Program-made: the position numbers and the translations under genes | The notes under the pieces: generated by a model | Told to the model about the DNA's origin: nothing | Databases searched by the model: none | What the model saw: the letters and a program-made list of their open reading frames with translations, nothing else | Shown here: positions 2,660 to 29,335 of the stretch, piece by piece | How positions within the stretch are numbered: position 1 is the stretch's first letter | How the letters are laid out: each line of letters starts with the position of its first letter | Assembly: GCA_947627105.1 (NCBI GenBank) | Contig: CANQUT010000001.1 | Coordinates: forward strand, 5,980 to 69,979 | Origin: an uncultured Clostridia bacterium | GTDB lineage: Bacteria > Bacillota > Clostridia > TANB77 > CAG-508 | DNA length: 64,000 nucleotides | Reading direction: 5' to 3'

Positions 2660-5600
2660 ATGAAATTAAAACAAAAGATAATTACAGCTTTCACAACAAC
2701 AATTTTGCTAGGAAGTTATTTATTGCCAGTTGGAAACTTAGCAATAGCAACAGCTACCGCTGAACTTGAAAGCCAAACATCAAAAACTAATAATCCAAAT
2801 GTAGAATTTAATACTTACCTTGAAGGAAATACACATGAAAACACTTATAACCTTACAGAAGGTGGAAAGTTATATATAGAACTTAAGGTAAAAGAAAACG
2901 GCTATTTAAAAAATGGAATAGTCGAATTTAGCAATTGTAATTATAATTTTAATAGTAACGAAATAAATTCGGAATATATTCAAAAAATAGAAAACAATGC
3001 TATATATTTAAAACAAATTAGTAATGAAGACAGTATAAGAATAGAGCTACCAATAAGTTTTAAAAAGGAAGAAGCTATTAATATAGAAGAATTTAATAAA
3101 GAATCTAAAGCAAAATTAAAAGGTAGTTATATAAATATAGAAGGAAAAGAAATATTAATAGAAAAAGAAATAACAAATAAACTAAAATGGGAAGCAGAAG
3201 CAGAAGCCAAAGTAAATGCAGAAATAACAAAATACATACCATATAAATTAGGAGAAGAATATGGATTATTATTACAAACAAAAATAAACTCTGGAATTAA
3301 TGAAAATATATTACCAATTGCAAGTACTTCTTTAGAAGTATCAGTACCTGTAATAAATAATAAAAAAGCAGACGTAGTAAAAGTAATAGCAAATAAAACA
3401 ATAGCAACTAATGGAGAAGAAAGCGGACTTAACTTTACATCTGAAAACTATGAATATAATGAGAATGAAAATAAAGTAAAAATAAATGTAAACAATAAAG
3501 TAAATACACAAGGAAACATGGCATGGAAAAATGGAGAAGATGAATATTTAATAACTTGTATTTATAAAGAAAAAGAAATATATGACTATGTAAAAGGACA
3601 GCTAGAAAAAGCAAATTCTACAAAAATAACAGAAGAACAAATAGCAAACGGAGATAATAATATTAATGCAATAAATATGCCAACACAAGTAAATGGAATA
3701 ATTACAGTTTATGGAATAGAACAAAAACAAATACAAGTAAATTCAAGTTTTTCAAGTATTATACAAGAGGAAAAAGGAGAATTATCTGATTCTACAGTAA
3801 AAACAATAAATAATATTAGTAAAGGCTATATATATGCAAATTATGCAAAAGAAGAAAATGAAAAACAAGTAGAAGAAAAAGAGCAAACTATATATGAATT
3901 AACCTATAATGCACAAATATATAGTACAGATATACTAAAAGAAATTAAATTTATAACAGAAGAAGAAAAAATATTTGCAGAAAATACTGAATATGAAATA
4001 GGAAAAAACATTATAACAAAAGAAGTAAAAATTAATGAAGCAATATTTAAAAAAATATTAGGAGAAGAAGGAAATCTACAAGTTTTAGACAAAAGTAATA
4101 ATGTACTAGGAGAAATTAATTCTTTAAGTCAAAAAGATGATCAAGGAAACTATATTTTAAATATAGAAGAAAAAAATATAAATGAGGTAATAGTTAAAGC
4201 TTCTAATCCTATTACAGAAGGAAGCTTAGAAGTAAAAGTAGAAAAAGCATTCGTAAAAAACCAAAGTTTTTCACAAGAGCAAATGAAAACTTTTACTAAA
4301 ATATTAATAACATCAAACATAGAAACAAATACAAACAATAAAAATTATAATATGGAAATAACATTACAAGAACCAGTAAGCAAGGCAGAAATAAAAGTAG
4401 AAGAGGAAAAACAAACACTATCTACTGTAGTAGTAAATAAAGATGTTAATATAAATGTAGTATTAGATACATCAAGTGTTCAAAACGCATTATATAAAAA
4501 CCCAGTTATAAAAATAGTAATGCCAAGTGAAATAAAAAAGGTAGATTTAAAAGATGCTAACCTTTTATTAGACGATGAATTAAAAATAGAGAATAAAAAA
4601 GTAACAACTGAAAATGGAAAACAAATTATTAATATTACATTAAAGGGAACACAAACTGAATATGAAAACTATTCAGATATAGAGCAGAATAATGTAATAA
4701 CAAAAGGAGCAAATATAATACTTAAAGCAGATCTTACATTAGACATGTTAGCATCAAGCCAAACAGAAAAAATATATATGTATTATACAAATGAAAATAC
4801 TAATCTTTATGAAAATGTAAATAATGAAGATTCAAATAAAATATATGGAATTGCAACAACAGACATAGATATTTCAGCACCAACAGGAGTAATATTAGCA
4901 AGTGGAATATCAAATTATTCATCAAAAGCACAAGAAATTATATCTATATCAGACATAAATGCTACAATAGAAACTTATGTAGAAAAAAGAATTGCTACTA
5001 TTTATGGAAAAGTAATTAATAATCATAAAAATGAAATTACAGATGTTGTTATTTTGGGAAGAATTCCAGCAAAAAATAATATTAAAATAGATGAAGAAGA
5101 TGAATTAGGCTCAAACTTTAGTACTTATTTAAATAGTCCTATCGTAGTATCTGGAATCAATAAAGAAAATTATGAAATTTATTATTCAGATAAAGCTAAT
5201 GCAACAAAAAATTTGGAAGACAATAGCAATGGATGGAAAGAAGAATCAAATACATCTTCAAAATCATATTTAATTGTTATAAAAAATTATAATATGCAAA
5301 AAGGTAAAGAAATAGATTTTGAATATAATGTAGAAATTCCAGAAAAATTATCATATAACAACAATAGTTATGGAGTGTATAAAGTATATTATAATAATGT
5401 TTCAGAAATTGGTACAATTGCTGAAACAAAAACATCTCCTATCATAAATATTTCAACAGGAGATGGGCCAAAATTAGATATTAAATTATCATCTATGTCA
5501 GATACAGTACGAGAAGGACAAATTGTTAAAATCATAGCAACAATTAAAAATGTTGGAGAAATGGCAGCTGAAAATGCAAAATTAATAATAGATGCTCCAG

Positions 5601-7831
5601 ATGGAACATCTCATATACAAATGAATGCAAATAATGCAAGTTATGTAGAAAGTAAAGAAAAGAAAAAAGAAATCTCTCTTGGAACTATTAATCCAGGTCA
5701 AACTATTGTAAAAGAATATGAGTTAAAAATTGAAAAAGGGGTAAAATCTCAAACTATTCATGATGATTCTACAGGAAAAGATATTACAACACAAATTAAT
5801 GAATACCCAGGAGACAAAGATTTGCAAAACATTGTTAAAATATCTTCAAGTAATATAACAAACGAAATTGAATCAGATCCATATATTTTACATGTTAAAG
5901 AGGGAGATATAAGCATTATAGTAAAAGAACTTTTAACAAAGGGAAATGTATTAAAAAAAGGAGATAATCTTAAATATGAAGTAAATGTAAGCAATATTTC
6001 ATATACTAAAGATGCGGAAAACTTAACTTTAAATGTAAGATTGCCAGAAGGTATAAAAATAAACGATATATATTATCAAAAAGAAGGATCAGGAGAAAAA
6101 GTAAAAGATAATATTACAATTAATGGCAATACTGCTACTATAAATATAGGAACATTAAAAAGTATAAATAAATATTTAAGCAATCTTGGCGAAATAACTG
6201 AAGGTACAAAAATTGATAATATTTGTACAATGGCGTATGTATATATTGAATGTACTGTTGAAAGTTTCCAAGGAGAGCAAAACTTTGCAATTGAAGCTGT
6301 AGCAGATGAGATATTAACACATTATTCTAATATACAAAATATAAAAGCAGAAGAAGTTAAATTAACAATAGAGCAAGATGAGCTAAACCAAAAATATATA
6401 AAAGAAGGATCAGAATACATAACACATTTTAAAGTAAAAAATATTGGAGAAATAGTTTCTACTAAGAATGAAATAAACATGGTACTTCCAGAAGGACTAA
6501 GTTTTGTAAAAGTACAATATAAATATGGAGATCAAGAAGTAGAAAAACAAATATCAAAAGAAGACTCTTTAAATGTTAGTATTCATGAATTAGAAGCAGG
6601 TCAAACAATAGATATTTATGTTACACTAAAAGCTAAATTACTTTCAAATACAAATAGTAAAGAAGTAATTACTGTAGCTACATTAAAGGCAGATGGATTT
6701 GAAAAAATAGAATCAAACAGTCAAACAGCAATTATAGAATATGATGAAACTGTACATAACAGTAGTGAAAATGGAGGAGCAATTCAAAATAGTTATAAAA
6801 TAACAGGTATGGCATGGTTAGATAAAGATCAAGATGGTAAAAGAGCAAGCGATGAACAAGTTTTATCAGGTATTCAAGTTATTCTTTTAAACAAAAAAGA
6901 TAACACAATTGTTAAAACACAAGATACAGGAGAAAATGTTAGAACTATAACAAAAGATGATGGAACCTATGAATTTGTAAATATTCCTAAAGGAGAATAT
7001 TTAGTATTATTCTTATATGATACAAAATTATATGGTTTAACATCTTACAAAGCAAGTGGAGTATCAGAATCAATAAATTCAGATGCAGCTAGTATAAATG
7101 TTATTCTAAATGGAGAAGAAATAGTAGCAGGAATAACAGATACTATAGAGATTAAAAATTCAAATATAATGAATATTGATATAGGTTTATACTCTTATCA
7201 AAAATTTGACCTAAAACTTGATAAATACATATCTAAAATTACTAGAACTACTCCGACATCAGGAACAACTACAACAACTTATACACCAGAAAAAGGCAAA
7301 GTAGCAAAATCAGAAATATTATCAAAAAATCTTGGAGAAAGCAATGTTATTATTGAGTATAAAATTGTTGTAACAAATGAAGGTACGGTTAGTGGTTATG
7401 TTAAAAAGATTGTAGATTATTTGCCAAAGAATGTAAGATTTAGTACAACATTAAATAAAGATTGGTATTTATCAGAAAAAGGTAATATATATAATGCAAG
7501 TCTAGAAAATGAAGAAATAAAACCTGGAGAATCTAAGGAAGTAACATTAGTTGTTACAGCAGTAATAACTAATAGTAACTTAGGAATTTTAACAAATAAT
7601 GCTGAAATTTATGAAAGCTATAATAAGCAAGGTCTACCAGATATTGACTCAAAATCAGGAAACAATATGGCAAATGAAGACGATATATCAAATGCAGATT
7701 TAGTATTATCTCTTACAACTGGTAGGGTAGCTACATATATGATATTATTAATAGGAATTATTGTTTTAATAGCATTTGGTGCATTCTTAATAAATAGATT
7801 TATATTAACAGAAAAAGAAGAAGAATGGTAA
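2660..7831 (+). CDS. Giant secreted surface protein A1 (1723 aa): signal peptide, SdrD-B/CnaB-like fold, DUF11-type repeats, C-terminal TM anchor
   Basis: N-terminal signal peptide; WLDKDQDGKRASDE...DGTYEFVNIPKGEYLV (SdrD B-like); DUF11-like block NAEIYESYNKQGLPDIDS; C-terminal DISNADLVLSLTTG + hydrophobic helix + charged tail; paralog of 13357-18318. Confidence 0.85.
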   Translation: MKLKQKIITAFTTTILLGSYLLPVGNLAIATATAELESQTSKTNNPNVEFNTYLEGNTHENTYNLTEGGKLYIELKVKENGYLKNGIVEFSNCNYNFNSNEINSEYIQKIENNAIYLKQISNEDSIRIELPISFKKEEAINIEEFNKESKAKLKGSYINIEGKEILIEKEITNKLKWEAEAEAKVNAEITKYIPYKLGEEYGLLLQTKINSGINENILPIASTSLEVSVPVINNKKADVVKVIANKTIATNGEESGLNFTSENYEYNENENKVKINVNNKVNTQGNMAWKNGEDEYLITCIYKEKEIYDYVKGQLEKANSTKITEEQIANGDNNINAINMPTQVNGIITVYGIEQKQIQVNSSFSSIIQEEKGELSDSTVKTINNISKGYIYANYAKEENEKQVEEKEQTIYELTYNAQIYSTDILKEIKFITEEEKIFAENTEYEIGKNIITKEVKINEAIFKKILGEEGNLQVLDKSNNVLGEINSLSQKDDQGNYILNIEEKNINEVIVKASNPITEGSLEVKVEKAFVKNQSFSQEQMKTFTKILITSNIETNTNNKNYNMEITLQEPVSKAEIKVEEEKQTLSTVVVNKDVNINVVLDTSSVQNALYKNPVIKIVMPSEIKKVDLKDANLLLDDELKIENKKVTTENGKQIINITLKGTQTEYENYSDIEQNNVITKGANIILKADLTLDMLASSQTEKIYMYYTNENTNLYENVNNEDSNKIYGIATTDIDISAPTGVILASGISNYSSKAQEIISISDINATIETYVEKRIATIYGKVINNHKNEITDVVILGRIPAKNNIKIDEEDELGSNFSTYLNSPIVVSGINKENYEIYYSDKANATKNLEDNSNGWKEESNTSSKSYLIVIKNYNMQKGKEIDFEYNVEIPEKLSYNNNSYGVYKVYYNNVSEIGTIAETKTSPIINISTGDGPKLDIKLSSMSDTVREGQIVKIIATIKNVGEMAAENAKLIIDAPDGTSHIQMNANNASYVESKEKKKEISLGTINPGQTIVKEYELKIEKGVKSQTIHDDSTGKDITTQINEYPGDKDLQNIVKISSSNITNEIESDPYILHVKEGDISIIVKELLTKGNVLKKGDNLKYEVNVSNISYTKDAENLTLNVRLPEGIKINDIYYQKEGSGEKVKDNITINGNTATINIGTLKSINKYLSNLGEITEGTKIDNICTMAYVYIECTVESFQGEQNFAIEAVADEILTHYSNIQNIKAEEVKLTIEQDELNQKYIKEGSEYITHFKVKNIGEIVSTKNEINMVLPEGLSFVKVQYKYGDQEVEKQISKEDSLNVSIHELEAGQTIDIYVTLKAKLLSNTNSKEVITVATLKADGFEKIESNSQTAIIEYDETVHNSSENGGAIQNSYKITGMAWLDKDQDGKRASDEQVLSGIQVILLNKKDNTIVKTQDTGENVRTITKDDGTYEFVNIPKGEYLVLFLYDTKLYGLTSYKASGVSESINSDAASINVILNGEEIVAGITDTIEIKNSNIMNIDIGLYSYQKFDLKLDKYISKITRTTPTSGTTTTTYTPEKGKVAKSEILSKNLGESNVIIEYKIVVTNEGTVSGYVKKIVDYLPKNVRFSTTLNKDWYLSEKGNIYNASLENEEIKPGESKEVTLVVTAVITNSNLGILTNNAEIYESYNKQGLPDIDSKSGNNMANEDDISNADLVLSLTTGRVATYMILLIGIIVLIAFGAFLINRFILTEKEEEW

Positions 7832-7847: not shown

Positions 7848-10800
7848 ATGAAGATTAAAAAATATAAAAATTTTGGAATTTTGTTATTTATTTTAATAAT
7901 TACAATAGCAATAATACCTAATTTTATTATTACATTACTTGATAATATAATTGAAAAAGATTCTCCTTCTGCCTATAGTTTTTCACAAGGTGATATATAT
8001 TCATTAGGAATTGTATTTGGAGAACAGAGACAAAAAATAGAATGGACAGGATCACAATTTGGACCAGAAGATAGTGTAACAGGTTACGGAGTTGTAGATG
8101 GAAAAACAGTACCAAAACAAGATCCATATATCTTATACTGTACAGAATATGGTACGGGTTTTTGGACAGGCAATGGAACAAGACATTATGCAACTTCACT
8201 TGAAGGATCTTATGGTACAATAGAACATTATTATAAATCGAATCCACATGAAAGTATAACATACACGGGTAAATGGCATTGTACAGGGATTCATATTGAA
8301 CAAAAATATGATGGAGAACTAAGTTTTCCATGGCTTGTTAAAGAAAGTGATATAAACTTAATTAAAGCAGGTGGGGATGAAAATATATCATTAGCTTATG
8401 CACTAACTTCTAAAGAAATAGATAAATATAGTGAAGAAAAGCAAATGGCAATTTGGGCATTAAAAGGTCAAAGAGGACAAACAAGTTTATCAGAAGAAGC
8501 TAAACAATATGCTAAATATTATGAAAAAACACAAGTAGATAGAGGAAGTACAGAACTTCCAGATTTAGATATTAAAGGATCAGCAGAAGATTTAAAAGTA
8601 TTAGCACACTATGATGAACAAAAAGGTGGAACATTAACAATTGGTCCAATTAATTTAACATATATTAATCAAAATAATGATAGTATTGCTTTTGAAGGAA
8701 TTTCTGCAATGTATTTTAGAGGCTATAATAAAAAAGGTGAAATGGTTAAAGGAAAAACATCTGCAGATAGAATAAAAGTTGAATATGTTATTGACTCTAA
8801 TGGAAAATATGTACCAAAATTCTTTAATCCAAAAAAAGAAGAATGTTATGTAGATCACAATAAACAAGCTTACCCAGATGGCCAAGGAGATGGAGAATTT
8901 TACTTAGTAATAAAAGATCCAAACATTGGAAAGACTTCTAAAGATGAAGATTTTATAGCTGAGTTAGACTTAAGAATTACTTTTAAATGGATGACAATAT
9001 TTGATGCCCAAGTTAGTAATTTTAACTCTTATGAATATCAAGTAAATTGGTATGAACATTTATACCCAATAACACATTCAGATCCAGATTATTCATATAA
9101 TTTAGAAACTAAAAGATGGGAGGTAAGTGGATATCATTCTGACTCAAGTTGTTTAAAACGTGTTAAATTAGAGGAGGCTAGTCTTCAAAAAGTACTTTGC
9201 TATTATGGCGGAGGAAGAGAACTATTTACTACAACATTTACTATAGGAAATGTTGGAGAAAGAATAAATATTACTATGGACTTAGGAGGAAATGTTTGGG
9301 AAGATGGTTTATCTACTAAAGAATCAAAAGCAGATGGCTTAAATAGTACTCCAGCAGAAAATGGAAATAATATTGATAAAAATCTTAGCAATATAAAAGT
9401 TAGTTTATGGAAAGTTCAAAAAGCAGGAAGTATACCAGGAGAATTTATCACATATACATATACTAATGAAAATGGAAATTATATGTTTACAGGTTTAAAT
9501 CCATTACTTAAATATTATGTTTCATTTGAATATGATGGACAAAAATACTTATCTACTGAATATTTAAATGCAGGTTCATCAAGATATGATTCAGTAAATG
9601 ATATGATAAATGCTGGTGAATATAATGGATCAGATATATGGCATGCTACTTCAAAAGGAACTGAGACTTCAAGTGAAAGAGAAGCTTATAACCAAAGATT
9701 TTCAGAGATAGGTTCAGCACCTAAAAATTATCCATCAGATGATTCTTTATCAAGCGGTGCATTAGTAGAAAGCTATAACGAAGCATTTTCAATGTATGAC
9801 TTAATGGGCTTTAAATTAGATGAAAATGGTAAATATTATATAGATTCAAATCTTGCTTTAATAGATGGATACTATACAGTTGAAAACGGAAATATTGTAG
9901 TAACAAATAAATATCAAAAAGGTAGAATTTCACAAGAAATTGAAAAATATATTAAACAATATTCAGATAGTGAAAAGTCTAGAATGAGATCTGAACTAGA
10001 AGCTTTGATTGCACAGCAAAAAGCAGACTGGAATAAAAAAGTAGATGAAGCTAAAGTAACTCAAGAAAATAATATTACAAATGACTTAAAAGGAAATTCA
10101 GATTATACAGATAGTTATGGAAATCTAACACAAAAAGGATTAGATAAAGTAAAAGAAGAAGTTCAAAAAATAGAAAATCAAAGATCTAGTGGATTAAGTA
10201 AAATAGAAAAACAAAAAGAAGTTAGTTTAGAATATATTGAAAAATTAGAAATAGTTCCAGACTATAACACAATGATAAAAGATGTTTATAAAACTATTGC
10301 AGGCTCAGATACTAATATGTGGAGAAAATTACAATTTATTGAAGACAGCAAAATAAGTTCTTATACACAAAATAATAGTGAGAAATTAGACTTATACCCA
10401 GTATATGATGACTTTTATCTAAACTATTTAGTAGATAATGATGCTGGTACAGGAAAGAAAAAATATGACACAATTGAAGACCAAATGAAAGATTCTTATG
10501 ATCAAACAATTATTACAGTAGATGGTATAGACTATAAACCAATTTACGAAGGACAATTCTTTGTAAATTTAGGACTATGGAAAAGACAGCAAAATAATAT
10601 GTCTATAAGAAAAGATATATATCGTGCAGCTACTAGAATAAACGGTAAAACAGAAGTATATAAATATAATAAACGTGAAGATAATAAGGATTATTGGGAA
10701 ATTCAGCTAAGAATGAGTGATTACGAATATTATTATGGAGGACGTTATAATAGAGAGTTATATAAATCAGATTATGAATATGATACAAAATCTACAAACC

Positions 10801-13148
10801 TAAATGGAAGTAACTTAGAATTATATGTAACATATAAAATAAGTTTAAGAAATACTTCTCAAGGAATAATAAACGAAATTACAGAAGTTGTAGATTATTA
10901 TGATAAAGATTATACTTATGTACCAGATTTATCTTGGGTAATGTATACAAATAGTGGAAACGATGAGGAAATGTCAGTTCCAGAAGACTCATATTATAAT
11001 ATGATACACAAATTAGATAGAAGCAATATAAAATATGCAAAAGAAGTAAATGGAAAAGAAAATAGTAAATATGGAACAGCCTCACAATCAGATATAGAGA
11101 AAGATTATAATTCTTTATATATACAAGGATTACAAAATAAAAAACTAGCAACTGGTGAGGAAGCATATATATATTTAACATTTAAAGTAAACTTAGATAA
11201 TAATGGACATATTATATTAGATGAAGATGATAGTCTAAAAGAAAATCTAGTTGAAATAAACGGATTCAAAAACTATTACAATAATGGAACTAACTTACCA
11301 AACAATGTAACAATTAGTGGAGATAGTACACCAGCAGGATTAATAGACTTTAACTCAACACCAGGTAACTTAGAAGCAAGCGACTTAATTGGAGAAAGAT
11401 ATGAGAAAAACTTTGAAGATGATACTGATAGGGCTAAAAGTTTAAAAGTATTTTTAGATGAAAATGCAGTAAGGTATCTAAAAGGTACAGTTTGGGAAGA
11501 TAAAAGAACTCAAAATGTAAGTAATGCAATAATTGGTGATGGTGTAAGACAAGCTGGAGAAATTGGTATAGCAGGAGTAGAAGTAGATTTAGTAGAAAAA
11601 ATGACAAATGGAAACGAATATATATGGCAAAAAACTACAACTGGTGCAGATGGAACTTATGAATTTTCAAGCTACATACCTGGAGACTATATTGTTAGAT
11701 TTAAATATGGAAGCAATAATAGCACTGTTCTTACAAAAGAACATGGAGGAAGTAATGCAGTATCATACAATGGACAAGACTTTAAATCAACAATATATAG
11801 TAAAGACTTAAAAAATAATAAGGTTTTATTAGATAACAACGAAAAATATTACAATATTCTAGAGGCAGATAAATTAAGCTTAAATCAAAAACTTAATTTA
11901 TCAGATGCAAAAGACTTATGGGAAAGAAGAACTGAAGTAAATAATTATAGTACTTCAAATGTAACTAACCATAAAGCAGAGGTTTTATCATCACCTTATG
12001 CACAAACTATAGATAATAACAACATATCAGAGTTAATTACAAATACAAATATGGTAGCAGAGACACCAATTATAGTAGTAGAAGGAGAATATGATAGAAC
12101 AAAAACAGATGGTTATAATACAGAAAGTAATGGCAATGATTTATACTTATTTGATAATGATGCTAATGGTAATTTCATATTAAATAATGTAGATTTTGGA
12201 CTTACAGAAAGACCAAAAGCTGGATTAGAGCTTAACAAAAAAATAACTAATTTAAAACTTACTTTATCAAATCAATCAGTAATATTTGATACCAATCAAA
12301 CAGTTAAAAACTTATCATGGAGTAAAGGAAAAGAATATAATTTAGCAAATAATATAAAAGGTAATAAATATGAAGAATATTACGAAGAAAGTAAAACAAA
12401 TAGCCAATATAATCGTTACTCATATAGATCAGAAATTAGTAATATTATAAACTCACTTTACTTAACTGGTAAAAATGGCTTGCTACAAGTTGTTTTAGAT
12501 CAAGAACTTATGCATGGTGCTACTATTGAAATTACTTATGATCTAACAGTTAAAAATATAGGTGAAACAGACTACGTAGGACAAGACTTCTATTATTTAG
12601 GAACAGGAGCATCTACAATTGTATTAACATCTGCAAACACAGTATTAGATTATATATCAAACAATTTACAATATAGAGAAGTTGATAATACAGGTTGGGC
12701 TATAACTACATCAGAAGAAGTTTTAAGAAATGGATTAGTTAATAATAGATTAGCTGATAATGTAAAAAAATATAGTAATATCATAACAACAAGTCAATTA
12801 AATACTAACTTAAAACCAGGAGATGAAGTAAGCAAAAAACTAATATTATCACAAACAATGTCAACAAATAATGGAAACGATAATAAAGTTTATGAAAATA
12901 TCTCTGAAATTGTTGAAACATCTAATACAGTAGGTAGAAGAATGGCATATTCAATTGTAGGAAATCAAAATCCAGATGAAATACCAACAGAAGTAGATAG
13001 CAGTAAAGCAGAACAGGTAGTAGTAATACCACCATTTGGTTCTCAAAATTATGTATATTACATAATTGCAATATCAATAGTAATAGTATTAGCTATAGGT
13101 ATTATACTAATTAAAACAAAAGTCCTAAGAAGAAAAGATACATTATAA
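7848..13148 (+). CDS. Giant thioester-domain (TQxA-type) adhesin B1 (1766 aa) with two SdrD-B/CnaB-like domains; N- and C-terminal TM segments
   Basis: GGAGG RBS 16 nt after A1 stop (operon); Cys motif YILYCTEYG and Gln motif EEKQMAIWAL about 100 aa apart (thioester domain signature); GTVWEDKRTQ...DGTYEFSSYIPGDYIVRF; C-terminal VVVIPPFG + TM + KTKVLRRK. Confidence 0.85.
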   Translation: MKIKKYKNFGILLFILIITIAIIPNFIITLLDNIIEKDSPSAYSFSQGDIYSLGIVFGEQRQKIEWTGSQFGPEDSVTGYGVVDGKTVPKQDPYILYCTEYGTGFWTGNGTRHYATSLEGSYGTIEHYYKSNPHESITYTGKWHCTGIHIEQKYDGELSFPWLVKESDINLIKAGGDENISLAYALTSKEIDKYSEEKQMAIWALKGQRGQTSLSEEAKQYAKYYEKTQVDRGSTELPDLDIKGSAEDLKVLAHYDEQKGGTLTIGPINLTYINQNNDSIAFEGISAMYFRGYNKKGEMVKGKTSADRIKVEYVIDSNGKYVPKFFNPKKEECYVDHNKQAYPDGQGDGEFYLVIKDPNIGKTSKDEDFIAELDLRITFKWMTIFDAQVSNFNSYEYQVNWYEHLYPITHSDPDYSYNLETKRWEVSGYHSDSSCLKRVKLEEASLQKVLCYYGGGRELFTTTFTIGNVGERINITMDLGGNVWEDGLSTKESKADGLNSTPAENGNNIDKNLSNIKVSLWKVQKAGSIPGEFITYTYTNENGNYMFTGLNPLLKYYVSFEYDGQKYLSTEYLNAGSSRYDSVNDMINAGEYNGSDIWHATSKGTETSSEREAYNQRFSEIGSAPKNYPSDDSLSSGALVESYNEAFSMYDLMGFKLDENGKYYIDSNLALIDGYYTVENGNIVVTNKYQKGRISQEIEKYIKQYSDSEKSRMRSELEALIAQQKADWNKKVDEAKVTQENNITNDLKGNSDYTDSYGNLTQKGLDKVKEEVQKIENQRSSGLSKIEKQKEVSLEYIEKLEIVPDYNTMIKDVYKTIAGSDTNMWRKLQFIEDSKISSYTQNNSEKLDLYPVYDDFYLNYLVDNDAGTGKKKYDTIEDQMKDSYDQTIITVDGIDYKPIYEGQFFVNLGLWKRQQNNMSIRKDIYRAATRINGKTEVYKYNKREDNKDYWEIQLRMSDYEYYYGGRYNRELYKSDYEYDTKSTNLNGSNLELYVTYKISLRNTSQGIINEITEVVDYYDKDYTYVPDLSWVMYTNSGNDEEMSVPEDSYYNMIHKLDRSNIKYAKEVNGKENSKYGTASQSDIEKDYNSLYIQGLQNKKLATGEEAYIYLTFKVNLDNNGHIILDEDDSLKENLVEINGFKNYYNNGTNLPNNVTISGDSTPAGLIDFNSTPGNLEASDLIGERYEKNFEDDTDRAKSLKVFLDENAVRYLKGTVWEDKRTQNVSNAIIGDGVRQAGEIGIAGVEVDLVEKMTNGNEYIWQKTTTGADGTYEFSSYIPGDYIVRFKYGSNNSTVLTKEHGGSNAVSYNGQDFKSTIYSKDLKNNKVLLDNNEKYYNILEADKLSLNQKLNLSDAKDLWERRTEVNNYSTSNVTNHKAEVLSSPYAQTIDNNNISELITNTNMVAETPIIVVEGEYDRTKTDGYNTESNGNDLYLFDNDANGNFILNNVDFGLTERPKAGLELNKKITNLKLTLSNQSVIFDTNQTVKNLSWSKGKEYNLANNIKGNKYEEYYEESKTNSQYNRYSYRSEISNIINSLYLTGKNGLLQVVLDQELMHGATIEITYDLTVKNIGETDYVGQDFYYLGTGASTIVLTSANTVLDYISNNLQYREVDNTGWAITTSEEVLRNGLVNNRLADNVKKYSNIITTSQLNTNLKPGDEVSKKLILSQTMSTNNGNDNKVYENISEIVETSNTVGRRMAYSIVGNQNPDEIPTEVDSSKAEQVVVIPPFGSQNYVYYIIAISIVIVLAIGIILIKTKVLRRKDTL

Positions 13149-13356: not shown

Positions 13357-16300
13357 ATGAAAAAAATAAATCAAAAAATTATAGCCTTAATTTTAACTAT
13401 ATTACTAATTGGAACAAACCTAATTCCTCTAGGGAACCAAGTAATTGCGGCGAATTTATTAGAACAAAATAATAAAACAAGTAATAATAATGTAACATTT
13501 GATAGTTATTTAGAAGGAAATGTACATAATAAAATTTATAATGTAGAAGAGGAAGCTAAACTATACATAAAACTAAATGTATATAATACAGGGTATCTAA
13601 AAAATTCAACAATTACTATTTCAAATAATGCTAATTATGAAATAGATACAGCTAATTTAAAAAATGAAAACATATTATCTATGACTTCAAACCAAATAAC
13701 TATAAAACAAATTAATAGTAATGAAGAAGTAACTATAGAATTACCAATTAAAATAAAAACAGCAAATAGTGTAGAAAAAGATTTCGCACAAAAAGTTTCA
13801 GAAGTTTCATTAAATGCAATATATGTAGATGATAATGGAATAGAAAAAAACATAACAAAAACGATAAATAATCAAGTTATATGGAAAGAGCAAATGGAAT
13901 TAAATTTAAACTATGAAGTAACAAAATATATTCCATATAAACAAGAACAAGAATATGGTGTTTTATTGCAAACTGTAATAACAAGCAGTGTAAAAGACCA
14001 TGTTTTACCAATTTCAAAAACAGAATTAGAAATGTATGCACCACAAATAGAAAATGCAAAACCAACATCAGTAAATGTAATAGCAAATAAAACATTAAAT
14101 ACAAATTCAGATGAAAGTGGAATTAATTTTGAAACCTCAAATTATCAATATGATGAATCTACAGGCAAACTTACTATTACAGTAAGCAACATAGAAAACG
14201 AAAATAAATTAATTTCTTTAAATCCAAATGGTGTAGATGAATATATTGTAAACTTTATTTATAAAGGAAAAGAACTTTATGAAAAAATGTTAGAAAAAAC
14301 ATTTCAAACATCAATGAATGTAATAGGAAAAGTAACTATTGAAGATAGTGAACAAACATTAATAAAAAAAGATATTCAAGTTGAATATAATGAAAAAGAA
14401 GTAAAAGGTGTTTTAACAGATATTACACCTATAATTAAAACATCTATTAGCAAAGGAAACATATATGCTAATTATGATAAAAATGAAAATAAAAAAGAAA
14501 CAAATTATGAATACAGCTATATAGCACAAATAAATGAATTAAACCTTACAGAACAAGTACAAATGCAAACAGCAAAAGACTATTATTTAGACAATAACTC
14601 AAATGAATTTCCATTAGAAAATAATAGTTATATAAAACAAATAAAAATAGAAAAAAACAATTTTGAAAAAATACTTTCAGAAGAAGGAACAATAGAAATT
14701 AACAAAATAGATGGAACAAATATAGGAACAATAAATAAAGATACAAAACTAGAAAATAATAACTACATTTTAGATATTTCAGAAGCTAAAATGCAAGAAA
14801 TACAAATAAAAACAAGTAAGCCAGTATCAGTAGGAAATTTAGAAATAAAAATATTAAAAGCAATAATAGACGAGCAAACATATTCTAAAGAAGAAATGAA
14901 ACAATTTACCAAAATAAAATTAGGCATAATTAATAAAAGCGTAGAAAAAAATTTAGAATTAAGTTCTACTATTTCTTTAATAGAACCAGTAAGTACAGCA
15001 GAAATTACTATATCAGAAGAAAGTAAAAATTTATCAACAGTAGTAAAAAATGAAAATGTGGAAATTAAAGTAGTTCTAAATACATCTAATGTAGAATATG
15101 CTTTATATAAAAATCCAGTATTAGAAATAGAATTACCAAGAGAAATAGAAAAAGTTGATATTAAAGATATTAAAATTTTATTAGATGATGAGTTAAAAAT
15201 AGTAGAAAAACAAGTTATTACAAAAAATAAAAAACAAGTTATTCAAATTACTTTACAAGGAACACAAACAAATTATACAGAAACTACAAAAAGCGTAGAA
15301 GAAAATGTAATAGCTAAAGGTGCAAATATAATTATTAACGCAGATTTTACTTTAAATAAATTTGCTGTAAGTAAAGAAGATAAAATAACAATGTATTATA
15401 CAAACGAAAATACAAACTTATATGAAACTCCTACGAAAGAAGATATAGTAAGAGGAGTAGTATCTACTAATGTTAACATAGTAGCACCAAATGGAGTTTC
15501 AGCAATAAATAAAATAACTAACTATAATGCTAAAAACTCAGAATTAATTTCCTTAAACAGTGAAAAACAAGAAGCAATTATACCAGCAAAAGCAGAAAAG
15601 AAGACATTAACTATAGAAGGAATAATTACAAATAATTATGAAAATTCTATTGAAAATGTATCTATTTTAGGAAGATTGCCATTTAAAAACAATAAAGCTG
15701 TAGATGGAGAAACTTTAGGAAGTACATTTACGATGCCAATGGTACAAAAGATAGAATTTAGTGGAATAAGCAAAGATCAAGTAAAAGTATATTATAGCCA
15801 AAATGAAGAAGCAACAAAAGAATTAGAAAATACTTCAAACGAATGGAAAGAACAAATAGATGACTTATCTACTATAAAAAGCTACCTTATTGTTATATCA
15901 GGAAAAGTAGAAAAACAAACACAAATTAAATTTAATTATAAAGTAGAATTACCAGAAAACATAGGAACAGATAACAGTTCGTATGAAATGTACAAGGTAT
16001 ATTATAACAACAAAACACAAGAAGCAACTATAGGAGAAACAAAAATCTCAGGTATATTAGGTATATTAACAGAAAAAGCACCAGAATTAGAAATAACTTT
16101 AAACTCTAATGTCGAAGCAAATGGAATAGTTACAGAAGGACAAATTGTAAAATTCTTTGTAGAAGTAAAAAATATAGGAAAAGAAGAAATAAAAGATGCA
16201 GTATTAAATATTCCTGTTCCAAATGGAACTATTTATACTACATATAATTCTTCAGAGCAATTATATGTAGACTCTAATAAGCAAGCAATACAAATTTCAC

Positions 16301-18318
16301 TTGGAAATATAGGTGTTAATGGAGTAGCAAAAGCAAGTTATGATCTTAAAATGGGACAAGCAACATTAGGAAATATATCTAATAAAGTAAATGTAACAGC
16401 ACAAAACATAGAAGAAGCTGTTAACTCAAATGAATATATACTTACAAAAGTAGAAGGAAAATTAATATTAACATTATCTGCACCAAGAGATCCTAATGCT
16501 ACACTTAATAAAGGAAATATATTATATGCTACATTAATTTTAGAATCAAAAGAACAATTAAATAATGTAGTAGTAAATATAAGTATTCCAAATGGTATAA
16601 AAATAAATGAAACAAGCTATATAGACAAAGATGGAAACACACAAGACTATGTTCAAGTTCAAAATAATACTGTAATAGCTAATATTCCAAAATTAGAAGC
16701 AAACTATTTACAAAGTATTAAATTAAATCTTGAAATAGATAGCTTTACAGGTGATTTTAACTTTATTGCAAAAGCATCTTCTAATGAAACTAAAGAACAA
16801 ATATCTAACTTAATAAAATATCATGTTGGGGCACCAGAATTTGAAATTACACAAGCTTCATCTTCAGAAAAATATTTAAAAGAAGCAAAAGAAATTATAT
16901 ATGAATTTACTATGAAAAATGTAGGAGATTCAGATGCAAATGATGCCATATTTGAAGATGTGTTACCAGAAGGCCTAACATTTAAAAAATTAGAATATAC
17001 AAGTAAAGGAAAAATGCAAGAAATAAATTCTACATTAGATAATATAGCAAAAGTAAGATGGACCAAATTTGAACAAGGTGCTACGGAAACAGTAAAAATT
17101 ACAGCACAAGCAGACTTATTAGATGCAGAAAAGAAAGATAAAACGGTTAACAACATAGGTACAATTACAGCACAAGGAATAGAAAGTAAAAAATCAAATA
17201 ATATTACTACTATTATAGAATATAATCCAGAATTATATAAAGATAATAATCAAAACAATAATGAAATTACAGATAATAGTGCACTATACAAAATTACAGG
17301 TATAGCATGGTTAGATGAGAATAAAAATGGCAAAAGAGATGAAACAGAAAATTTATTATCAGGAATAGAAGTAAAATTATTTAAAAGAGAAAATAGTGAA
17401 CTTGTAAAAGATATACAAGATGGTACAGAAAAAACAACCAAAACTTTAGCAGACGGAAGTTATGAATTTACTAATTTAGAAAAAGGAAACTATGTAATAG
17501 TTTTCTGCTATGATGCTGGTAAATATAATGTTACAGATTATCAAAAAGAAAATATTAGTACAAGCTATAATTCAGATGCAGTTTCAATGCTAGTTACTTT
17601 AAATGGAAAGCAATTCCATGCAGGAGTAACAAATACTATAAATGTAACAAATGAAAATGTTAGAGACATAGATATTGGTTTATATGTAGCAAACAAATTT
17701 GACTTAAAAATAGACAAATATATTAATAAAATTACAGTAACTAATCAAACATCTGGAACAAAAACATATAACGTAAATAATTCAAAATTAGAAAAAGTAG
17801 AAATTTTTAAAAAAGATGTTAACAAATCAAGTATTGTTATTGAATATAAAATAGTTGTAACAAACGAAGGTGGACTTGAAGGCTATGCTAAAAAAATAGT
17901 TGACTATTTACCAAAAAATACTAAATTTAGTTCAGAATTAAACAAAGATTGGTATATTTCAGATAACAATAATGCAGTATATAACACAAGTTTAGAAAAT
18001 ACTATTTTAAAACCTGGAGAAAGTAAAGAAATAGCACTTACTTTAAGTGCACAAATTACAAATAGTAATATAGGAACAATTATTAATAATAATGCAGAAA
18101 TTTATGAAGCTTATAATGAATACGGAGAGCCAGATATAGATTCTATAGAAGCTAACATGATAGAAATAGAAGATGATATATCAAAAGCAGACATTATACT
18201 TTCTACAGCAACTGGTACAATAGTTATTTATTCAGGCTTAGTATTAGCAATATTATTTATTTTAGTAATTGGAACATTAGTAATAAGAAGAACTTTTAAA
18301 GAAGAAAATATATTATAA
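13357..18318 (+). CDS. Giant secreted surface protein A2 (1653 aa), paralog of A1
   Basis: Collinear similarity to A1 from signal peptide through SdrD-B-like (WLDENKNGKRDETE...DGSYEFTNLEKGNYVIVF) and DUF11-like region; C-terminal DISKADIILSTATG + TM + RRTFKEE. Confidence 0.85.
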   Translation: MKKINQKIIALILTILLIGTNLIPLGNQVIAANLLEQNNKTSNNNVTFDSYLEGNVHNKIYNVEEEAKLYIKLNVYNTGYLKNSTITISNNANYEIDTANLKNENILSMTSNQITIKQINSNEEVTIELPIKIKTANSVEKDFAQKVSEVSLNAIYVDDNGIEKNITKTINNQVIWKEQMELNLNYEVTKYIPYKQEQEYGVLLQTVITSSVKDHVLPISKTELEMYAPQIENAKPTSVNVIANKTLNTNSDESGINFETSNYQYDESTGKLTITVSNIENENKLISLNPNGVDEYIVNFIYKGKELYEKMLEKTFQTSMNVIGKVTIEDSEQTLIKKDIQVEYNEKEVKGVLTDITPIIKTSISKGNIYANYDKNENKKETNYEYSYIAQINELNLTEQVQMQTAKDYYLDNNSNEFPLENNSYIKQIKIEKNNFEKILSEEGTIEINKIDGTNIGTINKDTKLENNNYILDISEAKMQEIQIKTSKPVSVGNLEIKILKAIIDEQTYSKEEMKQFTKIKLGIINKSVEKNLELSSTISLIEPVSTAEITISEESKNLSTVVKNENVEIKVVLNTSNVEYALYKNPVLEIELPREIEKVDIKDIKILLDDELKIVEKQVITKNKKQVIQITLQGTQTNYTETTKSVEENVIAKGANIIINADFTLNKFAVSKEDKITMYYTNENTNLYETPTKEDIVRGVVSTNVNIVAPNGVSAINKITNYNAKNSELISLNSEKQEAIIPAKAEKKTLTIEGIITNNYENSIENVSILGRLPFKNNKAVDGETLGSTFTMPMVQKIEFSGISKDQVKVYYSQNEEATKELENTSNEWKEQIDDLSTIKSYLIVISGKVEKQTQIKFNYKVELPENIGTDNSSYEMYKVYYNNKTQEATIGETKISGILGILTEKAPELEITLNSNVEANGIVTEGQIVKFFVEVKNIGKEEIKDAVLNIPVPNGTIYTTYNSSEQLYVDSNKQAIQISLGNIGVNGVAKASYDLKMGQATLGNISNKVNVTAQNIEEAVNSNEYILTKVEGKLILTLSAPRDPNATLNKGNILYATLILESKEQLNNVVVNISIPNGIKINETSYIDKDGNTQDYVQVQNNTVIANIPKLEANYLQSIKLNLEIDSFTGDFNFIAKASSNETKEQISNLIKYHVGAPEFEITQASSSEKYLKEAKEIIYEFTMKNVGDSDANDAIFEDVLPEGLTFKKLEYTSKGKMQEINSTLDNIAKVRWTKFEQGATETVKITAQADLLDAEKKDKTVNNIGTITAQGIESKKSNNITTIIEYNPELYKDNNQNNNEITDNSALYKITGIAWLDENKNGKRDETENLLSGIEVKLFKRENSELVKDIQDGTEKTTKTLADGSYEFTNLEKGNYVIVFCYDAGKYNVTDYQKENISTSYNSDAVSMLVTLNGKQFHAGVTNTINVTNENVRDIDIGLYVANKFDLKIDKYINKITVTNQTSGTKTYNVNNSKLEKVEIFKKDVNKSSIVIEYKIVVTNEGGLEGYAKKIVDYLPKNTKFSSELNKDWYISDNNNAVYNTSLENTILKPGESKEIALTLSAQITNSNIGTIINNNAEIYEAYNEYGEPDIDSIEANMIEIEDDISKADIILSTATGTIVIYSGLVLAILFILVIGTLVIRRTFKEENIL

Positions 18319-18332
18319 GTGGGAGGCAAAGA

Positions 18333-21300
18333 ATGAATAGTAAAAATAAAATAGCACTTCTTGTAACAGGAATACTAGCAGTATTTATTACATTAGTAAT
18401 AATGTTTGCTACTATAGTTCAAGTAAATGGCAGAAAAATTCAAGAAGTAGCTAAACTTACAAAAGAAGCACTTACAATAAATAGTTCACAAGCTAATGGA
18501 AGTATAAAAACACCTGGAGCACATAACGGAAGTAGTAGTCTTTGGGTTGAAGCATTACCTAGTAATATAAATAAAGTATTTATTCCAACAGTTGGAAACG
18601 CACAACTATATTGTATAGAAAAAGGTGTTAGTTTAAAATCTGGATTAGAAAGAGTTTCAACAATTAAAGCATTAAAAGGAACATCTGGAAGTGTTAGTTC
18701 TTCTAGTTGTATGGCTTCTCTTCCAGAAAAACGTTATTCAAATACTTATTATGAATGTGTTAATAATCATACAGAAATGGTTCCATCTGGAGCATATATA
18801 GTTACAGCACCAGATAATTTCATAGCACCTTATGATGGAGTATATTCATATGGTTCATCTAGTAGCTTCAAAAAAGGTGAAAATATTAGCCAAGAAGTAA
18901 GACAAGTAGCAATTTGGTTAAATCCTGAAATGAATAAAGGAGAAAACTTTTATGAAAGTGGAGCTACATTTACATATATAGATATGGCAGAGCAATTAAA
19001 GGATGAAGCAATGGATTATAGAGATTATGAAAATAACTTAAAAAATAATGTAAATAATCCAATAAAAGATGCAACTTCTGACAAAATAAAAGTAAGTGTA
19101 GACCAAAAAGAACAAGTATTAATCTTAGGACCATATAAAATTAATTATGTAGAAGGAAACTCTGCATCAGCAAAATTTGCCGGAATTTCTAATATGGTTA
19201 TAAGAGGTTACAATGATAAGGCAAGAAAAGCATTTATTAAAAACTTAGAAATTGTAAGCTACATTCAAAATGGTAAAGAACATAAATTAGATTTCTTTAA
19301 TCCATTAAAAGAAAATGGCTATGTAGATAAAACAGCAAACTCATACCCAGTTAGCATGCAAGAATTTTACATTAAAATAAAAAATCCAAATCAAGGTATT
19401 TCAAATGGTGAGAAAAAAGTAAAATATATTGATATAAATGTAGAATATTCTTACATGACTGTTTATGCAATTCAATGTAATTTAAAAGGACATCAATTAG
19501 TTGCAACACCTATTCAAACATCACATAGTAATAGCTATCATTATAAATATGGCTATTTAACTTCTTGTAATGTGGGTTATCGTTGGAATGTAACTGAAAA
19601 TCCTTTAAAACAACAAGATGTAATAGATGCATGGGGAGAAAGAAACTTATATAAATTAAATATTAATTTAAAGGGTAATGTAGACGATATTACTACAGAT
19701 ATAACTATGAAATTAGGAGGTTATACTTGGGAAGATATACCAGAAGGAAAAGAAAATTTATCAAATGGTATAAAAACAGATGAAGATATAATTATTCCTA
19801 ATGTAAAAGTAACATTATATGAATGCATAATGGATTCTAATGGAAATGTACAATATAAAAATGGAAAACCACAAGCAAATGTTGCAAACTTATTATCTGA
19901 AGTAGACAAAGGAGAATTATCAGGGGAAGAATTACAAAACAGAGTTAATCCAAAACTTACAAATGCAAATGGCTACTATCAGTTTGATGGTTTAGATGTA
20001 TTTAAAAAATATTATGTTACATTTGAATATAATGGACAAATTTATATGTCTACAGATTATTTGCAAATAGGAAGCGGAAGTCACCAAAATTCTGTACAAA
20101 GCATGGTAAATGCTAAACTTTATAATACAGATATATGGGCTATAACTTCAAAAACATCAGAAATCTCAAGTGTAAGAACAGAATATAATAACAAATTTGC
20201 AGAAATTGGTTCATCACCAAAAGGTTATAGATCTAGTGATTCTTTAAAAAGTGGCAAACTAATAGAAGGCTATAATGAAACATTTTCTATAAATGATTTA
20301 TTAGGTTATGAATTACAAGAAAATGGTACATATAAATCAGTAGGACCAAGACTAATAGATGAGAAATATGTACTTGATGCAAATGGAAATGTAATAGAAG
20401 CACAATCTATTACAGAAGGCTTAATTAGCCAAAAAATTAAAGAATATATAACAAAAAATTATAAATACCCAGATAAAAATGCTTTAATTTCAATTTATCA
20501 AAATATTGTAAGGGAATATGCAAAAAATAGTAAAGATCAAGAAATTCTTTGGAAAAAATTACAATATATAGAAGACTGTAAAATTGAAGCATATACAGCA
20601 TCACCTTATGAAAAAGGAAATATAGATTTATACCCAGTATATAATAAATTTGTAGTAGATACACAAAGTGCTGTAATACCAGGAATTGGCACAATGCCAC
20701 CAATATATAATGGACAATATCATATAAATTCAGGACTATGGAGAAGACAATTAAATAATGTAGCATTAAGAAAAGATATTTATCGTGCAGCAACAAGAAT
20801 AAATGGAAAAACAGAAGTATATAAATATGATAAACGTTCTTCAAATGAAGATTACTGGAGAATTGAATTAAGAATGCAAGATTATCAAAACTATTATGGT
20901 TCTTACTATAATAGAGAAATATATCCATCAGATTATAATTATAAAGCATTAGCTACAAATTTATATGGTGAAGAATTAGAACTATATGTTACATATAAAA
21001 TCTCTATTAGAAATATATCACAAGGTATTTTAAATGAAATTACTGAAGTTGTGGATTATTATGATAAAGATTACACATATATGCCAGGTTTATCTTGGGT
21101 AATGTACAATGAAAACGGTATAGATGAAGAATTATCTATTCCAGAAAAATCTTATTATGATATAATGAACAACTTAAATTTAAATGGACTAAAATATGCA
21201 AAAAATATTAATAGCACTTATTCAAGTGTGCAAAATGGAAATGGTACTTATTGTGGTGCAAGCATTTACCAAGATGCATCAAAATCAGACTTAGAAAAAC

Positions 21301-28099: not shown

Positions 28100-29335
28100 A
28101 TGGAACTAAAGACGAAGTATCAATATACATATTTTATTTACCCATATATAATAGAAAAAAAGGACTATACAAATTATTTGTATAGTCTCTTAAAAAATAA
28201 AAAATGCAAATTAAAAATATTTAATAGTAAAAAAGATATTGGCATTGATTCTTACTTTTTACCAAGAATAAAAAATAAGCTATTTTGGACACTAAACTTA
28301 GGGCAAAAAGGAATTAAAAGCTATGAAAAAATGGACACAAGAATGAAAGCAAATATTTTAAGTAGCAAGTATTGTGCATTTTTTGAATACAATCTACAAG
28401 AAGATATTCCAGCTAAAATTGGGGAAGAAAACGGAATATTTTTTGATATATCAAAAGTAGAAATTGTTTGCTTTTCTACAGGAATTTGTTTTTTACTAAT
28501 GAAAACGATTCTAAATTCTAGCGAAAACTTTTCAGACATTTTAAATTTTAATTATAAATTTAAAGATATTCATTCAAAAAGAGAGCATCAAAAAGAATAT
28601 GATAATATAAAAATTCAAACTCAAAAGTTAAACAACATGAAAAATTTTGAAGAATTTTTAAAAGAAATTGTAGGAAATAATTTGATCTCAGCAAAAGCAG
28701 ATATTGATACTGAAAGCTTAATTACATATAGTTATGTTTGCTTAGAACAAAATAGTTGGAATGAAAACACAGATTTAATTGCACTTGAAAAAGAATTTGA
28801 AAAATACTATCATATACTTCCAGAAGTAGAACAAATAGATGATATTACATCTGAAGAAAAATTAATATATAAAGAAAAGTATTTATATTATGGATTTTCT
28901 AGCAATAGTAATGTATTAATGACATCAGAAGCTAATATAAAAAACTACACAAATTTGCTATTTAAATATGAAAATGAGTGGCTTTATCACTTTTTATATG
29001 ATTTACATCAAAAAATATATTTAAAAAGGCTAAATTTTAAAATTTCAAATACTAAAAAAATTTTAAAAGAGCATGAAGAATTTTTAAATTTTGTCAAAAC
29101 AAATTGGGCTTATGAAGTAACAAATAATGAAAAAGGTATTATATTAGAAAAGTATAATAAAAAAGCACAAAATATAGATGAAATTTTTAAAGAATTAAAA
29201 GATAAATATGATTTATTATATGAAGAATATAAAATTAAAAAAGTAAATAAACACAACAAATACATAATTGCAGTAATAGTTATAATGTTAATATTAAATA
29301 TTATTAATATGTGTATAATTTTTAAAAACCTATGA
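28100..29335 (+). CDS. Hypothetical protein (411 aa) with C-terminal TM segment
   Basis: Long ORF, Lys/Asn-rich, C-terminal hydrophobic helix; TGA stop overlaps ATG of next ORF (ATGA coupling). Confidence 0.6.
   Translation: MELKTKYQYTYFIYPYIIEKKDYTNYLYSLLKNKKCKLKIFNSKKDIGIDSYFLPRIKNKLFWTLNLGQKGIKSYEKMDTRMKANILSSKYCAFFEYNLQEDIPAKIGEENGIFFDISKVEIVCFSTGICFLLMKTILNSSENFSDILNFNYKFKDIHSKREHQKEYDNIKIQTQKLNNMKNFEEFLKEIVGNNLISAKADIDTESLITYSYVCLEQNSWNENTDLIALEKEFEKYYHILPEVEQIDDITSEEKLIYKEKYLYYGFSSNSNVLMTSEANIKNYTNLLFKYENEWLYHFLYDLHQKIYLKRLNFKISNTKKILKEHEEFLNFVKTNWAYEVTNNEKGIILEKYNKKAQNIDEIFKELKDKYDLLYEEYKIKKVNKHNKYIIAVIVIMLILNIINMCIIFKNL

Follow-up and report, generated by a model that had tools for sequence, protein, structure and literature searches.

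Thioester adhesins are, to our knowledge, among the very few bacterial proteins that bind their targets covalently, and work on them has so far centred on pathogens and conjugative plasmids. Their thioester domains (TEDs) are extremely divergent in sequence (PMC4450167, PMC6194298), only the Cys and the Gln that form the bond being universal among them (PMC4450167). In the known domains the Gln and Trp of a TQxxΦW motif on helix α2 make hydrogen bonds with the main chain of the thioester Cys and are dispensable for bond formation, and the Gln that does form the bond belongs to a weak ΦQζΦΦ motif on a strand towards the C-terminal end of the domain (PMC4450167, PMC6194298); in class II TEDs it is found on the βP-βQ hairpin that follows an inserted β-sandwich (PMC6194298). 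The proteins considered here, B1 and B2, are encoded in a 64,000-nucleotide stretch of DNA (the window) from an uncultured Clostridia bacterium (GTDB lineage Bacteria; Bacillota; Clostridia; TANB77; CAG-508), positions 5,980 to 69,979 of the forward strand of contig CANQUT010000001.1 in assembly GCA_947627105.1. The original prediction, made from the letters of the window alone, was that a Cys and a Gln in two short motifs of each N-terminal head form an internal thioester of the TED kind; the observation on which it was built was confirmed, and its interpretation was borne out in part only. The reading preferred here, which is held to be somewhat probable, is that the head of the B proteins is a thioester domain of class II-like layout, divergent in sequence and rich in insertions.

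Translation of the two genes, together with the family alignment described below, confirmed that both proteins carry a YCxE-type Cys motif and an xQxAIW-type Gln motif, and the common Cys-to-Gln spacing, put at ~100 residues beforehand, measures 101 residues in B1 and 97 in B2. The positions first given for the motifs were right to within a few residues, with the qualification that YILYCTEYG, placed at about residue 88 of B1, was off by roughly 6-10 residues. A regular expression combining the two motifs ([YFL]CΦζ, a gap of 40-130 residues, and QxxΦW) was run on all stop-to-stop open reading frames (ORFs) of at least 100 residues in the window and 42 related loci, and it matched 25 of 782 ORFs (297 thousand residues), all 25 of which were read as B-family. 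Twenty-three of these were flagged as B by script and the other two occupy the positions of upstream B paralogues in loci L022 and L032, the assignment of the 249-residue ORF in L032 having been made without a coordinate check. The confinement of the pattern to ORFs read as B-family, taken with the conservation of the motifs across the family, shows that they are real and under selection and excludes chance as their origin. The absence of the pattern from any ORF identified as non-B also tells against the main rival explanation, which is possible but unlikely, namely that the head is a new fold in which the Cys acts as some other nucleophile (in catalysis or covalent capture), as a metal ligand or as a redox-sensitive thiol, and that its resemblance to TEDs is convergent or coincidental.

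When 1.84 billion representative proteins were scanned in full with HMMER only 31 relatives emerged, and a scan of GTDB species genomes gave 42 loci, all coming from metagenome-assembled genomes (MAGs) of uncultured gut Clostridia (rabbit, human and chicken), including Clostridium sp. CAG:508. Three homologous-protein searches returned essentially self matches only, B1 as the sole query gave no matches in the genome-contig scan, tblastn of B-family heads against plasmids produced nothing relevant, and one of the alignments (A4) was too divergent for search patterns to be derived from it. The family alignment comprises 65 sequences, the heads of which are only ~25% identical to one another. Its Cys column holds 61 Cys, two gaps, one Ser and one Thr, and no confidently aligned member lacks the Cys, since the rows with Ser and Thr are misaligned outliers (P0030 and L055); L055 has an FC motif at residue 48, whereas in P0030, a fragment, a corresponding Cys motif was not found. 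The column of the motif Gln (Gln199 of B1) contains 61 Gln, two Asn and one Lys, (K/R)QxAΦW occurs in ~95% of members, and Trp203, Tyr184 and Tyr221 are almost invariant. The conserved Cys is the sole Cys conserved family-wide, and the alignment contains neither an invariant His nor an invariant Asp with which it could form a catalytic dyad. A disulfide role for this Cys was accordingly rejected for want of a second family-wide Cys, and a catalytic Cys-His reading for want of an invariant His or Asp, the latter point also counting against a new fold with a Cys of different function. It might further be supposed that the head is a degenerate TED relic, a non-covalent binder that has retained its Cys and Gln residues solely for the sake of folding, and the long divergent loops and the strong variation of the specificity-loop/N-lobe region between B1 and B2 (~30% identity) would fit such a history; however, the retention of a lone extracellular Cys across heads so dissimilar argues for a direct chemical use, and the relic explanation is considered very improbable.

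The B heads were compared directly with 20 class II TEDs from plasmids, made up of the pLS20 TIE and its relatives (L002-L011) and of SaTIE with relatives from Enterococcus, Vagococcus and C. perfringens (L012-L021), the SaTIE sequence used being identical to PDB 6FX6 over the 113-residue fragment compared. The best local hhalign alignment between the family and a canonical TED pairs the Cys strand exactly, xGxxΦYCΦExG of the B family falling on dGkxaFCiEPg of the TEDs (single-pair P 0.006-0.008), and the score of this sub-region was 28 as against 7.1±1.7 for column shuffles, none of 200 of which reached it. In the helical region the best match sets KQxAΦW against TQMxIWE, collinear with the Cys match, a score reached by 3 of 200 shuffles; in the same sub-region test the terminal hairpin gave no significant match to canonical TEDs, and with the pLS20-type TEDs only the Cys strand was aligned (P 0.04-0.11). 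With a position-specific scoring matrix (PSSM) built from the canonical TEDs alone, 51 of 61 members had their highest-scoring position, over the entire protein, at the conserved Cys. When the Cys column was zeroed the median rank of the site was 4 of ~1,670 positions, the flanks fell within the top 1% of positions in 52 of the 61, and the site outscored every other Cys of the protein in 58 of the 61, where 9.6 would be expected by chance. For B1 the site ranked 1, or 2nd of 1766 positions with the Cys column zeroed, and for B2 it ranked 2 in the whole protein and 1 among its nine Cys. The likeness extends beyond the Cys itself, and this, together with the helical setting of the second motif and its collinearity with the first, counts against a convergent new fold. 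To this extent the TED match originally put forward stands: the context of the Cys is TED-like by both PSSM and hhalign, QxAIW lies in a predicted helix, and the head is situated at the N-terminal tip of a stalked protein.

Structure prediction of the B1 head with AlphaFold2 (AF2) gave a predicted local distance difference test (pLDDT) score of 36 from a two-sequence alignment and a mean of 63.8 from 23 sequences. The model contains three helices (140-149, 159-168 and 176-191 in model numbering; block pLDDT 80-94 over residues 131-190), of which the second, with a block pLDDT of 80-86, bears KQMAIW. They are followed by a large β-sandwich (strands within 206-366; block pLDDT mostly 67-91, with 60 and 57 at its two ends), in which the motifs GPxxIxY, FGGIS, GYN, YP and NPN are conserved, and then by a long β-hairpin (strands within 400-429; block pLDDT 65-86) that carries Gln447. 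The predicted order of helices, sandwich and hairpin is that of class II TEDs, but the insert is about twice as large, and neither 6FX6 nor 6FWV was matched at the level of structure. Many B homologues have a His/Cys-rich insert (HxHxxxHxH...CxxC...C) that separates the sandwich from the Gln hairpin, for example at residues ~340-380 of P0007 and ~400-440 of P0020 and also in L036 and L043; it is largely missing from B1, and it could bind a metal or form a disulfide knot beside the putative thioester.

An important consideration is which Gln would be the partner of the Cys. The residue equivalent to Gln447 is Gln in each of the ~50 members that reach this position (20 of 20 in one check) and is never substituted, with a conserved Arg ~10 residues after it. 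The candidate lies 28-29 residues ahead of the first stalk domain (ITMDLGGNVWED) in the B proteins and ~24 in SaTIE, and in both the Gln is followed by a comparable run of a ~5-residue turn, a ~10-residue return strand and the next stalk domain. The original choice had been the Gln of xQxAIW, giving Cys98-Gln199 in B1 and Cys94-Gln191 in B2; both residues are conserved and aligned between the two proteins, Gln199 is kept in 61 of the 64 members with a residue in its column, and so divergent a domain could differ in geometry from known TEDs. In all solved TEDs, however, this Gln is a helper on α2 the mutation of which leaves bond formation intact (PMC4450167, PMC6194298), and here it is replaced by Asn (P0019, L040) or Lys (L039) in three members that all keep the Cys. 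Since Gln447 is never substituted, Gln199 is replaced in Cys-keeping members and the bonding residues are universal according to the published rule, Gln447 and Gln428 are the likely partners in B1 and B2 and Gln199 and Gln191 the helpers. If a thioester is present it is thus more likely to be Cys98-Gln447 than Cys98-Gln199, and a TED built on the latter pair seems a distinctly poor prospect.

A number of results weigh against placing the B heads among the TEDs at all. Pfam and NCBIfam scans at E up to 10, which covered B1, B2, 31 representatives, 23 head domains and 29 N-lobe (head) segments, gave no match to the Pfam models TED (PF08341) and TED_2 (PF20610) and none to any NCBIfam model; phmmer and hmmsearch of PDB sequences with B1 and alignments A4 and A7 found no TED; and when the AF2 model was compared with the PDB by Foldseek no match had an E below 0.001 and the 50 matches listed included no TED, the matches being insignificant p53-like sandwiches. 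Database models and structures thus do not identify the head as a TED. The AF2 model leaves the Cys lobe unmodelled (pLDDT <50 over model residues 1-111). The spacings are also unlike those of known class II TEDs, the distance from the Cys to the helper Gln being ~100 residues in the B heads as against ~55-60, and that from the helper to the candidate Gln ~240-250 as against ~117 in SaTIE. The PSSM of the TQ block performed unevenly (rank 1 in B1, 111 in B2, median 25), and that of the canonical thioester-Gln strand gave no signal at Gln447 (median rank 275), with the consequence that the assignment of this residue rests on conservation and topology. Whole-domain hhalign probability was just 5-6%, and homology to TEDs is thus statistically unproven, the similarity being one of motifs.

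The lack of any hidden Markov model (HMM), PDB-profile or Foldseek link to TEDs speaks for a new, Cys-dependent fold with convergent motifs; the resemblance is moreover limited to ~20 + 10 columns, and the His/Cys-rich insert of many homologues could bind metal. Validated TEDs are, however, themselves barely detected by HMMs: TIEpLS20, used as a control, scores 23.6 bits against PF08341 (cut-off 22) and 28.8 bits against PF20610 (cut-off 27), and phmmer with TIEpLS20 also finds no TED in the PDB. The sole PDB profile match of the B N-lobe (alignment A7) was 3sr9, receptor tyrosine phosphatase sigma, at E 0.88, and it was rejected, AYIATQGP...FWRALWE resembling AYIVTxxPxGxWxxxKQxAΦW by chance, which serves as a warning not to read too much into short motifs. 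A CGEQ-type thioester as in α2-macroglobulin was likewise rejected, the motif being absent and the weak bMG3 and bMG10 Pfam matches (in the partner protein A2 and in one family member) falling below cut-off and reflecting Ig-like folds only.

If the class II-like reading is right, the following mechanism can be envisaged. B1 and B2 would be secreted, C-terminally anchored proteins of ~1,700 residues with the build of a fibrillar adhesin and a head of ~440 residues, held away from the cell by a stalk of SdrD_B and transthyretin-like domains. A strand of the N-lobe would present the conserved Cys (Cys98 in B1, Cys94 in B2) in its [YF]CΦζ motif, and the Gln and Trp of KQxAΦW, on the middle one of the three helices that come next, would pack on the Cys backbone as the counterpart of TQxxΦW. 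After the unusually large sandwich inserted behind helix 3, the terminal hairpin would bring Gln447 or Gln428 back to the Cys to form the thioester, which a nucleophile on the target surface, probably a Lys amine, would then attack. Of this scheme the motifs, their family-wide conservation, the helical setting, the order of domains and the gene pairing are observed, and the closeness of Cys and Gln, the bond, the choice of partner Gln and the target are inferred. The features concerned are listed in Table 1.

Table 1. Coordinates, within the window, of the A and B genes and of the features of the B proteins
Feature	Position	Strand	Description
A1 gene	2660..7831	+	1723-aa partner surface protein; DUF11/CLIPPER repeats, SdrD_B, C-terminal LSLTTG and transmembrane (TM) helix
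B1 gene	7848..13148	+	1766-aa surface protein (ORF, translation)
B1 layout			N-terminal hydrophobic signal segment, TED-like head, transthyretin/SdrD_B-like stalk, C-terminal LPPFG-type motif, TM helix, basic tail
B1 Cys motif YILYC98TEYG	8127..8153	+	aa 94-102; [YFL]CΦζ type; Cys98 codon 8139-8141; proposed thioester Cys
B1 three predicted helices	8376..8531	+	aa 177-186, 196-205, 213-228; taken as TED α1-α3; middle one carries KQ199MAIW203
B1 EEKQ199MAIWAL	8433-8462	+	aa 196-205
B1 KQMAIW (TQxxΦW-like)	8439..8456	+	Gln199 codon 8442-8444; proposed helper Gln and Trp203
B1 large β-sandwich insert (predicted)	8574..9056	+	aa ~243-403, between helix 3 and Gln hairpin
B1 predicted long β-hairpin with LQ447KVL (ΦQζΦΦ)	9156..9245	+	aa 437-466; Gln447 codon 9186-9188
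B1 SdrD_B-like stalk domain (GTYEF...GDYIVRF)	11535..11810	+	PF17210, aa 1230-1321
B1 sorting-signal-like C-terminus	13023..13145	+	IPPFG, ~22-aa hydrophobic helix, KTKVLRRKDTL
A2 gene	13357..18318	+	1653-aa A1 paralogue (Pfam, translation)
B2 gene	18333..23414	+	1693-aa B1 paralogue
B2 Cys motif QLYC94IEKG	18603..18626	+	aa 91-98
B2 TQxxΦW-like motif EVRQ191VAIWLNP	18894..18926	+	aa 188-198
B2 hairpin region PLKQQ428DVIDAWGERNLY	19602..19670	+	candidate thioester Gln428, codon 19614-19616
B2 sorting-signal-like C-terminal region	23280-23411	+	

Domains resembling SdrD_B had been expected downstream of the heads, and PF17210 indeed matches B1 with 48.2 bits (E 1.5e-12) and B2 with 52 bits (E 9e-14) at a gathering cut-off of 29.7; a CarboxypepD_reg match in the B stalk is also above its gathering cut-off, those of TTR-52 (transthyretin-like) and SpaA being below theirs. 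For some members of SdrD_B isopeptide formation has been predicted (PMC12617251), and such bonds had been suggested for the B stalks too. The family consensus of the region (window 11460-11900) is nfEdDTDrA...R..nG.VWED.Rt...iGDG...E...G.Y.F...G.Y..RF.YG...SYNGQ, and it shows no conserved strand-A Lys before G.VWED (K in B1, N in B2, n in the consensus); a conserved Glu in the Y.F-type strands and a conserved SYNGQ are kept. With the acidic EDDTD, WED and GDG motifs retained and the strand-A Lys lacking, the SdrD_B domains of the B proteins look, by their sequence consensus, more Ca-binding-like than isopeptide-like; the suggestion of isopeptide bonds finds no support in this consensus, and the acidic clusters suggest that Ca2+ is bound, as in the staphylococcal SdrD B repeats. 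The partner proteins encoded by the A genes match DUF11 above its gathering cut-off (E 3e-11 in A1, 1e-13 in A2) as well as SdrD_B (5e-11 and 9e-13). DUF11 (PF01345), since renamed CLIPPER, has a crystallographically shown Lys-Asn isopeptide bond (PMC12617251), and any isopeptide chemistry at the locus is therefore likelier in the A proteins than in the SdrD_B domains of the B proteins.

Hydropathy places hydrophobic segments at residues 5-35 and 1732-1762 of B1, and several B orthologues have VSA/SFA-type cleavage sites after the N-terminal signal. In ~45 full-length homologues the C-terminus takes the form GRRMAYSxVGNQDP...EVDSxxAE..[ILV][PT]P[FT]G, followed by a ~22-residue TM helix and IKKKVLKK, the anchor motif being LPPFG, with the variants IPPFG, LTPFG and IPPTG (the last in P0020), and not LPXTG. 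The A proteins end (7690-7831 in A1, 18180-18318 in A2) in LSLTTG or LSTATG, after which come a hydrophobic helix and a few charged residues as a tail, a second LPXTG-like variant. There is no sortase gene or ORF anywhere in the window, and the LPPFG-type motif may be the recognition site of an unusual sortase or of another sorting enzyme.

The four giant ORFs A1, B1, A2 and B2 lie in tandem on the + strand with spoIIE (23782-26322) downstream. B1 and B2 are 57% identical over their last 1009 aligned columns as against ~30% in the heads, and BLASTP leaves their first 250 residues unaligned, but the Cys and Gln still coincide in a MAFFT alignment. The order minC-A-B-spoIIE (840-26322 in the window) is kept in ~30 MAG loci of uncultured gut Clostridia (within L022-L062), and the tandem duplication of the A-B pair recurs in several loci (e.g. 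L022-L024, L029, L032 and L059-L061), so that the pairing of the two genes is a conserved one and the locus looks like a lineage-specific core-genome locus and not a mobile element. The interval between minC and A1 (1521-2364) contains three small Asn/Lys-rich low-complexity ORFs of 83, 135 and 53 residues on the minus strand and no minD-sized ORF. Elsewhere in the window two ORFs of more than 400 residues each, at 28100-29335 and 51525-52784, are without a Pfam match at E up to 0.001.

The B family is unrecognised by current models. Should a thioester be formed in its heads, a widespread, uncultured lineage of commensal gut Clostridia would join the bacteria that adhere covalently, by way of a core locus, and the TED family would be broader than the Pfam and NCBIfam models allow, with a new class marked by large insertions and a different anchoring signal. 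A more specific proposal, put forward tentatively and with more doubt than confidence, is that this class has a sandwich of 160-200 residues and an extra N-lobe insert around a Cys98-Gln447 thioester, bears a non-canonical LPPFG-type anchor, and forms half of a conserved covalent-adhesion module of A (DUF11/CLIPPER) and B (TED) proteins fixed between minC and spoIIE in the core genome of CAG-508-like gut Clostridia, which are abundant although uncultured.

The systems closest to the B proteins are the class II TEDs, represented here by SaTIE-TED (6FX6), BaTIE (6FWV), EfmTIE86 and TIEpLS20 (plasmid pLS20). Shared with them are a [YF]CΦ(E/Q/D) strand motif, in which the Cys is conserved and the flanking residues are alike (turn-G-x-x-Φ-[YF]-C-Φ-E-x-G), and, by prediction on the B side, a central (T/K)QxxΦW helix between two more helices, a β-sandwich after helix 3, and a terminal hairpin with a conserved Gln ~25-29 residues ahead of the first stalk domain. 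Unlike the class II domains, the B heads are missed by TED HMMs and by Foldseek, have an extra insert of ~55 residues between the Cys strand and helix 1 and a sandwich insert of ~160-200 residues as against ~75, carry Lys or Arg in place of the Thr of TQ, and have a Gln strand without PSSM similarity. In the wider architecture the B proteins resemble the TIE adhesins in their N-terminal head, Ig-like stalk, great length as surface proteins and tripartite C-terminal anchor signal, but they differ from class II TIEs in an anchor of LPPFG, TM helix and basic tail where LPXTG would be found, and in a gene that belongs to the chromosomal core genome of commensal gut Clostridia and forms a pair with that of a DUF11 protein.

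The class I TEDs, SfbI, FbaB and Cpa of Streptococcus pyogenes and CpTIE of Clostridium perfringens, share the Cys and TQxxΦW signatures with the B heads, and the chemistry proposed for both is covalent capture of an amine on the target, which for SfbI is that of fibrinogen Aα Lys100. In class I domains helix 3 is joined to the P/Q strands by a linker of only ~10 residues, and there is an extra helix α0, and the large sandwich insert of the B heads means that they do not belong to this class. Complement C3 and C4 and the α2-macroglobulins (A2M), including bacterial A2M, likewise use a Cys-Gln thioester for covalent capture; theirs, however, is made within one CGEQ tetrapeptide, absent from the B proteins, in an α-helical TED of unrelated fold. 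As for the stalks, SdrD_B (PF17210) of the B proteins and DUF11 (PF01345) of the A proteins are both families that occur in the stalks of fibrillar adhesins.

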